A DNA stretch of 43,657 nt from Escherichia coli (lineage in GTDB: Bacteria; Pseudomonadota; Gammaproteobacteria; Enterobacterales; Enterobacteriaceae): the NCBI RefSeq assembly GCF_003334315.1, contig NZ_QOWR01000041.1; one strand, 5' to 3'. Position numbers and translations under genes: made by a program. Shown here one piece after another: positions 885 to 30,835 of this stretch; positions within the stretch are counted from its first letter, which is position 1, and every line of letters begins with the position of its first letter. Under the pieces are notes generated by a model. The model saw only the letters and a program-made list of their open reading frames with translations. It did no database searches and was not told the DNA's origin.

Positions 885-3146
885 ATGTCGCAACATAACG
901 AAAAGAACCCACATCAGCACCAGTCACCACTACACGATTCCAGCGAAGCGAAACCGGGGATGGACTCACTGGCACCTGAGGACGGATCTCATCGTCCAGC
1001 GGCTGAACCAACACCGCCAGGTGCACAACCTACCGCCCCTGGGAGCCTGAAAGCCCCTGATACACGTAACGAAAAACTTAATTCTCTGGAAGACGTACGC
1101 AAAGGCAGTGAAAATTATGCGCTGACCACTAATCAGGGCGTGCGCATCGCCGATGATCAAAACTCACTGCGTGCCGGTAACCGTGGTCCAACGCTGCTGG
1201 AAGATTTTATTCTGCGCGAGAAAATCACCCACTTTGACCATGAGCGCATCCCGGAACGTATTGTTCATGCACGCGGATCAGCAGCTCACGGTTATTTCCA
1301 GCCATATAAAAGCTTAAGCGATATCACCAAAGCGGATTTCCTCTCAGATCCGAACAAAATCACCCCAGTATTTGTTAGGTTCTCTACCGTTCAGGGTGGC
1401 GCTGGCTCTGCCGATACCGTGCGTGATATCCGTGGTTTTGCCACCAAGTTCTATACTGAAGAGGGTATTTTTGACCTCGTTGGCAATAACACGCCAATCT
1501 TCTTTATCCAGGATGCGCATAAATTCCCCGATTTTGTTCATGCGGTAAAACCAGAACCGCACTGGGCAATTCCACAAGGGCAAAGTGCCCACGATACTTT
1601 CTGGGATTATGTTTCTCTGCAACCTGAAACTCTGCACAACGTGATGTGGGCGATGTCGGATCGCGGCATCCCCCGCAGTTACCGCACCATGGAAGGCTTC
1701 GGTATTCACACCTTCCGCCTGATTAATGCCGAAGGGAAGGCAACGTTTGTACGTTTCCACTGGAAACCACTGGCAGGTAAAGCCTCACTCGTTTGGGATG
1801 AAGCACAAAAACTCACCGGACGTGACCCGGACTTCCACCGCCGCGAGTTGTGGGAAGCCATTGAAGCAGGCGATTTTCCGGAATACGAACTGGGCTTCCA
1901 GTTGATTCCTGAAGAAGATGAATTCAAGTTCGACTTCGATCTTCTCGATCCAACCAAACTTATCCCGGAAGAACTGGTGCCCGTTCAGCGTGTCGGCAAA
2001 ATGGTGCTCAATCGCAACCCGGATAACTTCTTTGCCGAAAACGAACAAGCAGCATTCCATCCAGGTCATATTGTTCCTGGTCTGGACTTCACCAACGATC
2101 CGCTGTTGCAGGGGCGTTTATTCTCCTATACCGATACACAAATCAGTCGTCTTGGCGGGCCAAATTTCCATGAGATTCCGATTAACCGTCCGACCTGCCC
2201 TTACCATAATTTCCAGCGTGACGGCATGCATCGCATGGGGATCGACACTAACCCGGCTAATTACGAACCGAACTCGATTAACGATAACTGGCCGCGCGAA
2301 ACACCGCCGGGGCCGAAACGCGGCGGTTTTGAATCATACCAGGAGCGCGTGGAAGGCAATAAAGTTCGCGAGCGCAGCCCATCGTTTGGCGAATATTATT
2401 CCCATCCGCGTCTGTTCTGGCTAAGTCAGACGCCATTTGAGCAGCGCCATATTGTCGATGGTTTCAGTTTTGAGTTAAGCAAAGTCGTTCGTCCGTATAT
2501 TCGTGAGCGCGTTGTTGACCAGCTGGCGCATATTGATCTCACTCTGGCCCAGGCGGTGGCGAAAAATCTCGGTATCGAACTGACTGACGACCAGCTGAAT
2601 ATCACCCCACCTCCGGACGTCAACGGTCTGAAAAAGGATCCATCCTTAAGTTTGTACGCCATTCCTGACGGTGATGTGAAAGGTCGCGTGGTAGCGATTT
2701 TACTTAATGATGAAGTGAGATCGGCAGACCTTCTGGCCATTCTCAAGGCGCTGAAGGCCAAAGGCGTTCATGCCAAACTGCTCTACTCCCGAATGGGTGA
2801 AGTGACTGCGGATGACGGTACGGTGTTGCCTATAGCCGCTACCTTTGCCGGTGCACCTTCGCTGACGGTCGATGCGGTCATTGTCCCTTGCGGCAATATC
2901 GCGGATATCGCTGACAACGGCGATGCCAACTACTACCTGATGGAAGCCTACAAACACCTTAAACCGATTGCGCTGGCGGGTGACGCGCGCAAGTTTAAAG
3001 CAACAATCAAGGTCGCTGACCAGGGTGAAGAAGGGATTGTGGAAGCTGACAGCGCTGACGGTAGTTTTATGGATGAACTGCTAACGCTGATGGCAGCACA
3101 CCGCGTGTGGTCACGCATTCCTAAGATTGACAAAATTCCTGCCTGA
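885..3146 (+). CDS. katE: Catalase HPII (large-subunit monofunctional catalase)
   Basis: 753-aa ORF with N-terminus [20 protein letters not shown] and catalase core motifs (RERIPERVVHA-like, GSAAHGYF); length matches KatE. Confidence 0.97.
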
Positions 3147-3149
3147 TGG

Positions 3150-3173
3150 GAGGCGGCGCAATTGCGCCGCCTC
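3150..3173 (+). other. 24-nt perfect palindrome GAGGCGGCGCAATTGCGCCGCCTC, 4 nt after the katE stop (possible terminator or REP-like hairpin)
   Basis: Perfect 10-bp stem with AATT loop read directly from the sequence; no strong T-run follows, so intrinsic-terminator status is uncertain. Confidence 0.4.
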
Positions 3174-3202
3174 AAATGATTTACATAGTGCGCTTTGTTT
3201 AT

Positions 3203-3391
3203 GCCGGATGCGGCGTGAACGCCTTATCCGGCCTACAAAACTGTGCAAATTCAATATATTGCAGGAAACACGTAGGCCTGATAAGCGAAGCGCATCAGGC
3301 AGTTTTGCGTTTGTCAGCAGTCTCAAGCGGCGCAGTTACGCCGCCTTTGTAGGAATTAATCGCCGGATGCAAGGTTCACGCCGCATCTGGC
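3203..3391. repeat. BIME/REP cluster (REP - spacer with tgcaaattcaatatattgcagg - REP, plus a third REP-like unit)
   Basis: GCCGGATGCGGCGTGAACGCCTTATCCGGCCTAC-type REP palindromes at about 3203-3236, 3272-3302 and 3362-3391, typical of enterobacterial intergenic repeats. Confidence 0.8.
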
Positions 3392-3403
3392 AAACATCCT
3401 CAC

Positions 3404-4165
<762 letters not shown>

Positions 4166-9475: not shown

Positions 9476-10303
9476 ATGACATTGCAACAACAAATAATAA
9501 AGGCGCTGGGCGCAAAACCGCAGATTAATGCTGAAGAGGAAATTCGTCGTAGTGTCGATTTTCTGAAAAGCTACCTGCAAACTTATCCGTTCATTAAATC
9601 ACTGGTGCTCGGGATCAGCGGCGGTCAGGACTCCACGCTTGCCGGAAAGCTGTGCCAGATGGCGATTAATGAGCTGCGCCTGGAAACCGGCAACGAATCA
9701 CTGCAATTTATTGCCGTACGCCTGCCCTATGGTGTTCAGGCCGACGAACAAGATTGCCAGGATGCCATTGCCTTTATTCAACCGGATCGCGTATTAACCG
9801 TTAATATCAAGGGCGCGGTATTGGCCAGCGAACAGGCATTGCGGGAAGCAGGCATTGAACTGAGCGATTTTGTCCGTGGCAATGAAAAAGCGCGTGAGCG
9901 GATGAAAGCACAATATAGCATTGCGGGTATGACCAGCGGTGTCGTGGTGGGCACCGATCATGCAGCAGAAGCCATTACCGGATTCTTCACTAAATATGGT
10001 GACGGCGGTACGGACATTAATCCGCTGTATCGTCTCAACAAACGTCAGGGTAAACAGTTACTGGCGGCATTAGCTTGCCCGGAACACCTTTATAAGAAAG
10101 CGCCAACGGCCGATCTGGAAGATGATCGCCCTTCTCTGCCAGATGAAGTGGCACTCGGCGTGACCTATGACAATATCGACGACTATCTGGAAGGGAAAAA
10201 CGTACCTCAACAGGTCGCCAGAACAATAGAGAACTGGTATCTGAAAACCGAACATAAACGCCGTCCGCCAATTACCGTTTTCGATGATTTCTGGAAAAAG
10301 TAA
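9476..10303 (+). CDS. nadE: NH3-dependent NAD+ synthetase
   Basis: 275-aa [34 protein letters not shown]… with the SGGQDS PP-loop motif. Confidence 0.95.
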
Positions 10304-10348
10304 TAATTTGCACATATTGGATTGTGCGAAAAAGAGTAATTTGTTCAC

Positions 10349-10447
10349 GCCGGATGCGGCGTGAACGCCTTATTCGACCTATAAAACTATGCAAATTCAA
10401 TACATTGCAGGAGTCGAATAGGCCTGACAGGCGTAGCACGTCAGACG
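10349..10447. repeat. REP - spacer - REP unit (RIP/BIME-like) between nadE and cho
   Basis: CGCCGGATGCGGCGTGAACGCCTTATTCGACC … tgcaaattcaatacattgcagg … GGCCTGACAGGCGTAGCACGTCAGACG; near-identical in architecture to the unit at 3203-3302. Confidence 0.75.
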
Positions 10448-10532
10448 GTGTAACCTTTGTCATCGACCCGCCTCTTTTTTAATCGCTTCCCGCCTGTTAC
10501 ACTGGATAGATAACCAGCATTCGGAGTCAACA

Positions 10533-12033
<1,501 letters not shown>

Positions 12034-29388: not shown

Positions 29389-30732
29389 ATGGATCAGACA
29401 TATTCTCTGGAGTCATTCCTCAACCATGTCCAAAAGCGCGACCCGAATCAAACCGAGTTCGCGCAAGCCGTTCGTGAAGTAATGACCACACTCTGGCCTT
29501 TTCTTGAACAAAATCCAAAATATCGCCAGATGTCATTACTGGAGCGTCTGGTTGAACCGGAGCGCGTGATCCAGTTTCGCGTGGTATGGGTTGATGATCG
29601 CAACCAGGTACAGGTCAACCGTGCATGGCGTGTGCAGTTCAGCTCTGCCATCGGCCCGTACAAAGGCGGTATGCGCTTCCATCCGTCAGTTAACCTTTCC
29701 ATTCTCAAATTCCTCGGCTTTGAACAAACCTTCAAAAATGCCCTGACTACTCTGCCGATGGGCGGTGGTAAAGGCGGCAGCGATTTCGATCCGAAAGGAA
29801 AAAGCGAAGGTGAAGTGATGCGTTTTTGCCAGGCGCTGATGACTGAACTGTATCGCCACCTGGGCGCGGATACCGACGTTCCGGCAGGTGATATCGGGGT
29901 TGGTGGTCGTGAAGTCGGCTTTATGGCGGGGATGATGAAAAAGCTCTCCAACAATACCGCCTGCGTCTTCACCGGTAAGGGCCTTTCATTTGGCGGCAGT
30001 CTTATTCGCCCGGAAGCTACCGGCTACGGTCTGGTTTATTTCACAGAAGCAATGCTAAAACGCCACGGTATGGGTTTTGAAGGGATGCGAGTTTCCGTTT
30101 CTGGCTCCGGCAACGTCGCCCAGTACGCTATCGAAAAAGCGATGGAATTTGGTGCTCGTGTGATCACTGCGTCAGACTCCAGCGGCACTGTAGTTGATGA
30201 AAGCGGATTCACGAAAGAGAAACTGGCACGTCTTATCGAAATCAAAGCCAGCCGCGATGGTCGAGTGGCAGATTACGCCAAAGAATTTGGTCTGGTCTAT
30301 CTCGAAGGCCAACAGCCGTGGTCTGTACCGGTTGATATCGCCCTGCCTTGCGCCACCCAGAACGAACTGGATGTTGACGCCGCGCATCAGCTTATCGCCA
30401 ATGGCGTTAAAGCCGTCGCCGAAGGGGCAAATATGCCGACCACCATCGAAGCGACTGAACTGTTCCAGCAGGCAGGCGTACTGTTTGCACCGGGTAAAGC
30501 GGCTAATGCTGGCGGTGTAGCAACGTCAGGCCTTGAAATGGCGCAAAACGCTGCGCGCCTGGGCTGGAAAGCCGAGAAAGTTGACGCACGTTTGCATCAC
30601 ATCATGCTGGATATCCACCATGCCTGTGTTGAGCATGGTGGTGAAGGTGAGCAAACCAACTACGTGCAGGGCGCGAACATTGCCGGTTTTGTGAAGGTTG
30701 CCGATGCGATGCTGGCGCAGGGTGTGATTTAA
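29389..30732 (+). CDS. gdhA: NADP-specific glutamate dehydrogenase
   Basis: 447-aa ORF MDQTYSLESFLNHVQKRDPNQTEFAQAVREV… with the GDH active-site region (GGGKGGSDFDPKGKS). Confidence 0.96.
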   Translation: MDQTYSLESFLNHVQKRDPNQTEFAQAVREVMTTLWPFLEQNPKYRQMSLLERLVEPERVIQFRVVWVDDRNQVQVNRAWRVQFSSAIGPYKGGMRFHPSVNLSILKFLGFEQTFKNALTTLPMGGGKGGSDFDPKGKSEGEVMRFCQALMTELYRHLGADTDVPAGDIGVGGREVGFMAGMMKKLSNNTACVFTGKGLSFGGSLIRPEATGYGLVYFTEAMLKRHGMGFEGMRVSVSGSGNVAQYAIEKAMEFGARVITASDSSGTVVDESGFTKEKLARLIEIKASRDGRVADYAKEFGLVYLEGQQPWSVPVDIALPCATQNELDVDAAHQLIANGVKAVAEGANMPTTIEATELFQQAGVLFAPGKAANAGGVATSGLEMAQNAARLGWKAEKVDARLHHIMLDIHHACVEHGGEGEQTNYVQGANIAGFVKVADAMLAQGVI

Positions 30733-30740
30733 GTTGTAAA

Positions 30741-30835
30741 TGCCTGATGGCGCTACGCTTATCAGGCCTACAAATGGGCACAATTCATTGCAGTTACGCT
30801 CTAATGTAGGCCGGGCAAGCGCAGCGCCCCCGGCA
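30741..30835. repeat. BIME/REP pair between gdhA and ynjI
   Basis: TGCCTGATGGCGCTACGCTTATCAGGCCTACA … CTAATGTAGGCCGGGCAAGCGCAGCGCCCCCGGCA; canonical REP palindromes in inverted orientation. Confidence 0.8.

Follow-up and report, generated by a model that had tools for sequence, protein, structure and literature searches.

The window analysed here, a stretch of 43,657 nucleotides of the Escherichia coli chromosome, is collinear with K-12 MG1655 between approximately 1.813 and 1.857 Mb, and at the loci studied the MG1655 coordinate equals the window coordinate plus 1,812,982. Two similar repeats occupy intergenic positions within it. One (unit 1; ~1,816,185-1,816,284 in MG1655) sits between the convergent genes katE and chbG; the other (unit 2; ~1,823,331-1,823,429) begins 45 nt past the stop codon of nadE, between that stop and the promoter region of cho. 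Each is one extragenic doublet, and the GenBank K-12 record presumably carries RIP repeat_region annotations. A third REP pair separates ynjI from gdhA, whose end is at 30732. The names katE/chbG and nadE/cho given to the first two sites by the initial annotation are correct. No RAYT gene was found within the window. The features discussed below are collected in Table 1.

Table 1. Genes, repeat components and open frames at the three intergenic sites, in window coordinates; codon scores are in bits per codon.
Feature	Position	Strand	Description	Evidence
katE	885-3146	+		
Phantom ORF through unit 1	3111-3326	-	71 aa; antisense overlap of katE 3' end	codon score -0.247
Second phantom ORF through unit 1	3127-3450	+	107 aa; look-alike of 10324-10482	
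Third open frame through unit 1	3146-3352			
T1	3153-3171		GC-rich palindrome GCGGCGCAATTGCGCCGCC just after katE stop	
Unit 1	3194-3316	+	katE/chbG; read as a full BIME-1 (RIP) element with conserved flanks	repeat search, blastn, consensus
Unit 1 y-type REP	3203-3236	+	GCCGGATGCGGCGTGAACGCCTTATCCGGCCTAC; ends in CTAC (3233-3236); iREP orientation on + strand	
Unit 1 L linker	3237-3271	+	35 nt	
Unit 1 predicted IHF site	3249-3261	+	core-consensus match ATTCAATATATTG, 12/13 to WATCAANNNNTTR	consensus scan
Unit 1 z1-type REP	3272-3301	+	GTAGGCCTGATAAGCGAAGCGCATCAGGCA; starts GTAG (3272-3275); inverted relative to y REP	
T2	3327-3345		near-copy of T1, GCGGCGCAGTTACGCCGCC, 17/19 identical	
Solitary y-like REP	3362-3391	-	degenerate, without CTAC; beside chbG stop codon	repeat search, REP census
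chbG	3404-4153	-		
nadE	9476-10303	+		
Phantom ORF through unit 2	10272-10463	-	63 aa; antisense overlap of nadE 3' end	codon score -0.237
Unit 2	10340-10462	+	nadE/cho; read as a decayed BIME-1 element	sequence, repeat search, blastn
Unit 2 decayed y REP	10349-10382	+	…TTATTCGACCTAT; CTAC changed to CTAT	
Unit 2 L linker	10383-10417	+	35 nt	
Unit 2 predicted IHF site	10395-10407	+	core match ATTCAATACATTG, 12/13 to WATCAANNNNTTR	consensus scan
Unit 2 decayed z1 REP	10418-10447	+	ATAGGCCTGACAGGCGTAGCACGTCAGACG; GTAG changed to ATAG	
cho	10533-11420	+		
Third pair, z-type iREP	30741-30771	+		
Third pair, spacer	30772-30805	+	34 nt	
Third pair, variant y-like REP	30806-30835	+	GCCGGGGGCGCTGCGCTTGCCCGGCCTAC	

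Both sequence and alignment bear out the claim that two look-alike REP-spacer-REP units are present at 3203-3302 and 10349-10447. In a global alignment they are identical at 83 of 100 positions with one 1-nt gap, and they have the same layout in direct orientation, offset by exactly 7146 nt. A blastn search of the window with unit 1 recovered unit 2 at E=9.9e-30, and so their likeness is not due to chance. The spacer strings first quoted are exact and differ by a single base (T/C), both containing ATTCAATA[TC]ATTG. The extent given to the units requires amendment: the 100-nt core is real, but the repeated unit is approximately 123-130 nt long, with conserved flanks (TTTGTT... and ...TTTGCGTTTGTCA) that are part of it, and the repeat search extends the match to 123 nt ungapped (3194-3316 against 10340-10462) at 81% identity. 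Alignment of the units, which the initial annotation had put forward as a check, shows that units 1 and 2 share their layout while the third spacer differs.

The two copies are in unequal states of preservation. The y REP of unit 1 is identical to the consensus of copies at other loci, and the tetranucleotide tags next to the palindrome (GTAG/CTAC) are intact in unit 1 and absent in unit 2 (ATAG/CTAT), where there are 3 substitutions in the y REP and about 8 in the z1 REP. Measured against a family consensus built from 43 in-register copies, unit 1 differs at 9 of 100 positions and unit 2 at 18. All three units fold far better than shuffled sequences on both strands (z -4.2 to -4.7), and the linkers of units 1 and 2 align to the family L consensus with a score of 18, one that none of 2000 shuffles attained.

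The published definition of BIME-1 comprises y and z1 REPs and a long, well-conserved L linker, often with an IHF site, in single copy (PMC3333891; PMC2817692; PMC3184786). A y REP, a conserved L linker and an inverted z1 REP, occurring singly and outside genes, is what we find in both units, and this supports their initial reading as RIP/BIME elements. An exact-pattern scan for the linker core TGCAAATTCAATNNATTGCAG, in one genome for each of 100,044 species, returned 82 instances in 70 stretches, about 70 of these instances being in Escherichia (albertii, whittamii, coli-like and the cryptic clades) and Pseudocitrobacter; because copies were retrieved by the exact L core, core conservation within this set is partly circular. 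Nearly all of the enterobacterial copies run y REP - AAAAnnn - core - nnnnnnn - z1 REP, followed by (A/G)TTTTGCGTTT; seven core matches in unrelated bacteria have no REPs and look like chance. When the L linker alone was used in a BLAST search (E<=0.01), it was found in 5426 of 5426 E. coli genomes, at 3-33 places in each. We are confident that units 1 and 2 are copies of the enterobacterial BIME-1 (RIP/RIB), a non-autonomous REP doublet of approximately 125 nt, which would act through the mechanism proposed below. This element, BIME-1 or RIP (repetitive IHF-binding palindromic) or RIB, is said to be that of Gilson, Bachellier and Hofnung, of Oppenheim et al. 1993 and of Boccard and Prentki 1993; it is already known, a textbook BIME-1/RIP, and the observation is correct but ordinary. 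The additions made here are the allele frequencies of the nadE/cho and katE/chbG copies and the single-copy spacer of the third pair.

Some of the collected sequences deserve separate mention. A 262-nt contig assigned to Desulfosporosinus sp. OT (L015) is 99% identical to the 3' end of E. coli katE, with the same T1 palindrome and a near-identical BIME-1 sequence, and a contig from a Collinsella MAG (L059) also has an enterobacterial BIME-1 sequence; judging by their sequences, both are likely to be enterobacterial contamination of those assemblies. In Escherichia sp. MOD1-EC7003, L-containing BIME units form tandem arrays (L070 231-1071; L066 13901-14685; L065 7908-8503), of 7.3 x 115 nt and at least 4.8 x 162 nt, the latter reaching the contig end, and these contradict the textbook view of BIME-1 as single copies.

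The L linker carries an IHF site according to the literature (PMC3333891; PMC2817692; PMC3184786), and the relevant passage of PMC3184786 cites Oppenheim 1993 and Boccard & Prentki 1993 for the IHF-binding element. The main text of Prieto et al. 2012, on IHF ChIP-seq, does not mention REP or BIME elements. In both linkers the core match lies downstream of an A-tract (CAAAAC at 3236-3241 in unit 1) and ends in TTGCA, resembling the lambda H' site (TATCAAtttgTTGca / ttgctTATCAAtttgTTGcacc); the IHF consensus and the H' site were taken from PMC2709558. Scanning the spacers for IHF sites, as had been suggested, thus yields a match at 12 of 13 positions in each, though a non-discriminating one: matches with at most one mismatch are common in the window (49 observed against 40 expected), so that the consensus scan adds little alone and the weight of our reading rests on family membership, since the core match by itself is not significant in the window. 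Among the loci collected, a core with at most one mismatch occurs in 56 of 56 pairs in which y and z1 REPs are 30-40 nt apart, in a set that is not independent of the retrieval pattern.

The spacers also match a catalogued RNA, and one might suppose that the spacer represents a family of small-RNA genes (Rfam ES036/CssrF) to which the REPs are mere flanks, an alternative that we consider very unlikely. The RF02751 model, ES036 (CssrF), matches both spacers full-length across all 43 positions (55.5 bits over 3237-3279, 42.9 bits over 10383-10425), above its gathering score of 37.6, and CssrF itself is a transcript of approximately 290 nt that a northern blot revealed in Shigella, in the dacB/yhbZ region (PMC3071730). 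However, dacB/yhbZ is the named locus of ES036/CssrF, not katE/chbG or nadE/cho, and the 43 nt of the model cover the L linker and then GTAGGCCT, the initial 8 nt of the z1 REP, both being parts of a DNA repeat of which each genome has many copies. In unit 1 the model's outer stem is built of non-standard pairs, scans of both unit regions for promoters and terminators disclosed no such site, and both units lie just 3' of a gene, so that any RNA would most simply be 3'-UTR read-through. ES036 appears in effect to model the BIME-1 repeat linker and not a locus-specific sRNA; it will match every RIP copy in a genome, not one sRNA locus. A literature search on 'ES036' returned grant numbers only and no paper on the family.

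A second alternative concerns the open frames across the repeats. The minus-strand ORFs described initially, at 3111-3326 and 10272-10463, do exist and share ...LRLSGL...CN[IV]LNLHSF[VI]GRIRRSRRIR..., and a look-alike pair on the plus strand (3127-3450 and 10324-10482, sharing ...RMRRERLIRP[TI]KLCKFN[IT]LQE...) had been missed. If the two minus-strand ORFs were paralogous small-protein genes, which is highly improbable, their intact frames with start codons and the 109 similar clusters in a protein database search, some labelled DUF3521, would be accounted for. Their codon usage is nevertheless non-coding-like. On a codon log-odds scale trained on the 32 ORFs of at least 200 aa in the window, which themselves score a mean of +0.276 and a minimum of +0.087 bits per codon, both minus-strand ORFs fall far below the real-gene minimum (Table 1) and, among the 272 ORFs in the window that are 40-120 aa long (mean -0.142), rank at the 29th and 31st percentile; the plus-strand ORFs score -0.23, -0.28 and -0.08. 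Three frames are open over the same DNA (+0, -0 and +2, in 54, 45 and 39 of 65 family copies across the 100-nt unit), and variation among family copies is without 3-base periodicity, entropy by codon phase being flat at 0.307/0.293/0.300. New stops have moved the end of the nadE/cho minus-strand ORF in O157, E. whittamii and E1V33.

The database clusters themselves point the same way. Nearly all are Escherichia or Shigella 'hypothetical protein' entries of 40-112 aa, some being named 'DUF3521 domain-containing protein' and one, with 192 members, mislabelled as fructose-bisphosphate aldolase. In the ten matches inspected, similarity ends at the repeat borders: only ...LPDALRLSGL..CN.LNL..FVGRIRRSRRIR.. 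is common to them, and the N and C termini are unrelated. No current Pfam-A or NCBIfam model matches the ORFs, and RefSeq annotates no gene at them among the genomes listed. BIME-1-derived ORFs deposited as proteins include clusters P0092, P0028, P0042, P0073 and P0090, of which P0073 is the nadE/cho phantom ORF. The minus-strand ORFs are not genes; neither coding-like codon usage nor conservation as proteins was found when looked for, and the original description of them as phantoms holds on codon usage, open frames, periodicity and the confinement of similarity to the repeat. The peptides look alike because G+C-rich palindromes with few stops are open in several frames, and an ORF finder would read one repeat at each locus and report similar peptides.

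A third alternative, a local segmental duplication in which one intergenic segment gave rise to the other 7 kb away, would suit two direct-orientation copies only 7146 nt apart, but its probability is negligible, given that the BIME-1 unit occurs at dozens of unrelated loci and in other species, that unit 2 is present in all E. coli and sister species and unit 1 in 36% of E. coli genomes, and that the units differ from the consensus at 9 (unit 1) and 18 (unit 2) positions against 17 between themselves.

As BIME-1 copies, the two units have separate histories. Unit 1 lies within a 257-nt intergenic allele (3147-3403) that is present in 1931 of 5426 complete E. coli genomes (36%). O157:H7, Nissle (B2), SE11 (B1) and the other strains examined have instead a 46-nt katE/chbG spacer with one simple hairpin, AAGGTCACGCCCCCTGGGGAGTGACCTT. 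The last two katE codons, where the differences are synonymous (cct gcc tga against ccg gcg taa), mark the point from which the long and short alleles diverge. The long allele is probably derived, as is suggested by the occurrence of the short one in strains of B1, B2 and E. Unit 1 is bracketed by the palindromes T1 and T2, which lie 174 nt apart in direct orientation (4 matches against 0.12 expected). Their inclusion in the BIME-1 family was rejected, because, with 670 kb of other loci scanned, they occur at this locus only, and one may ask whether they originated in a local duplication on insertion. The initial annotation had also missed the solitary, degenerate y-like REP beside the chbG stop codon. 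At the katE/chbG locus of E. coli STEC2017-197 (L003 ~1260-2165) the sequence departs from the BIME-1 linker pattern at ~1260, the linker differs (AAAGTCGTATAAATTCAATGTATTGCAG), and a transposase gene of IS621 (IS110 family) is annotated at 1382-2165; there appears, from this arrangement, to be an IS621 insertion inside the BIME. REP sequences are known targets of IS621.

Of the two copies, unit 1 is young and close to the consensus, in a lineage-specific allele, and unit 2 is old, fixed and decayed. The nadE/cho copy is present in 5426 of 5426 complete E. coli genomes and has orthologues in E. whittamii, Escherichia sp. E1V33 and sp. MOD1-EC7003; since it is fixed in E. coli and found in sister Escherichia, it predates E. 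coli. The changes in its two tags are complementary: CTAC has become CTAT (10379-10382) in the K-12-like lineage, and GTAG has become ATAG (10418-10421). The z1 change came first, because O157 and O18 strains combine CTAC with ATAG; this is a single pair and too little to claim selection for pairing. Binding and cleavage by TnpA-REP need the conserved GTAG (CTAC on the iREP) beside the palindrome (PMC3333891). With both tags lost, unit 2 has probably ceased to be a substrate for the transposase, and we predict that it is immobile.

In MOD1-EC7003 the nadE/cho BIME-1 (L068 1725-1800) ends right after the L core and is joined to internal cho codons, a deletion having taken the 5' part of the gene together with its promoter and the z1 REP. 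In the window, a LexA-box-like motif, CTGGATAGATAACCAG (CTG-N10-CAG), occurs at 10502-10517, approximately 40 nt beyond unit 2 and 16 nt before the cho start codon, which places the unit 2 RIP just upstream of a putative cho control region. The gene cho is SOS-regulated and reported to be LexA-controlled, in agreement with this motif. We think it unlikely, if conceivable, that domestication has turned the nadE/cho copy into an architectural or insulating element, dependent on IHF, that stands between the 3' end of nadE and the cho promoter; the 22-nt core of this copy has 0 changes, where approximately 2.6 would be expected had it diverged from E. whittamii as nadE has (~12%; rough P ~0.06, estimated from alignments), and the unchanged IHF core is only suggestive as a sign of such domestication.

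The third REP pair, reported at 30741-30835 with a spacer of its own, is also real, and its 34-nt spacer does differ from the L linker. We tried the spacer as a diverged L in either orientation and rejected this, because about 5% of shuffles score equally and there is no Rfam match, ES036 failing to match the pair even at E<=10; the pair is not a RIP/BIME-1. It is present in 3503 of 5426 E. coli genomes, with a spacer that occurs once per genome. The B2 strain UM146 has neither ynjI nor the pair, and in its genome one y-like REP lies between gdhA and topB. In the window the gdhA-proximal REP starts 8 nt past the gdhA stop codon (30730-30732), and so falls within the distance of at most 15 nt from a stop at which REPs have been described as translation-linked (PMC12306157).

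Beyond the architecture, family membership, copy distribution and non-coding ORFs observed here, we infer the steps of a mechanism from the literature. IHF would bind and sharply bend the L linker in duplex DNA, at units 1 and 2 as elsewhere, and BIME-1 would thereby have an architectural role where transcription units end. Once transcribed, the REPs may fold, each into its own hairpin or y and z1 together into a long one, as stable 3' structures that attenuate transcription and protect the mRNA. In single-stranded DNA, the GTAG-tagged REP hairpin would be recognised by the REP-associated tyrosine (Y1) transposase TnpA-REP/RAYT, which may spread and reshuffle the copies. This mobility part probably no longer applies to unit 2, because GTAG/CTAC is absent from it.

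The practical consequences concern the quality control of annotation. BIME-1 copies seed databases with look-alike 'hypothetical' and DUF3521 proteins, including the one aldolase-named cluster, and their linker has been catalogued as an Rfam sRNA; recognising the repeat avoids false gene and sRNA calls. The window also displays the turnover of such repeats within 30 kb, one copy being fixed and decayed, one young and polymorphic, and one a locus-specific REP pair.

These elements have counterparts among described systems. The third pair resembles BIME-2 and atypical BIMEs in being a REP/iREP doublet with a non-L linker, but it stands as a single doublet without tandem repetition, its linker has one copy per genome, and one of its REPs is a variant. 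Units 1 and 2 resemble the REPINs mobilised by RAYT/TnpA-REP in having two inverted REPs able to pair into one long hairpin, and unit 1 does so additionally in its presence/absence polymorphism between strains; they differ in that E. coli BIME-1 has a protein-binding linker and there is no RAYT gene in the window. Between BIME-1/RIP/RIB and unit 1 there is no essential difference, whereas unit 2 is a mutated relic of the same element, 18% off the consensus and with both tetranucleotide tags gone.
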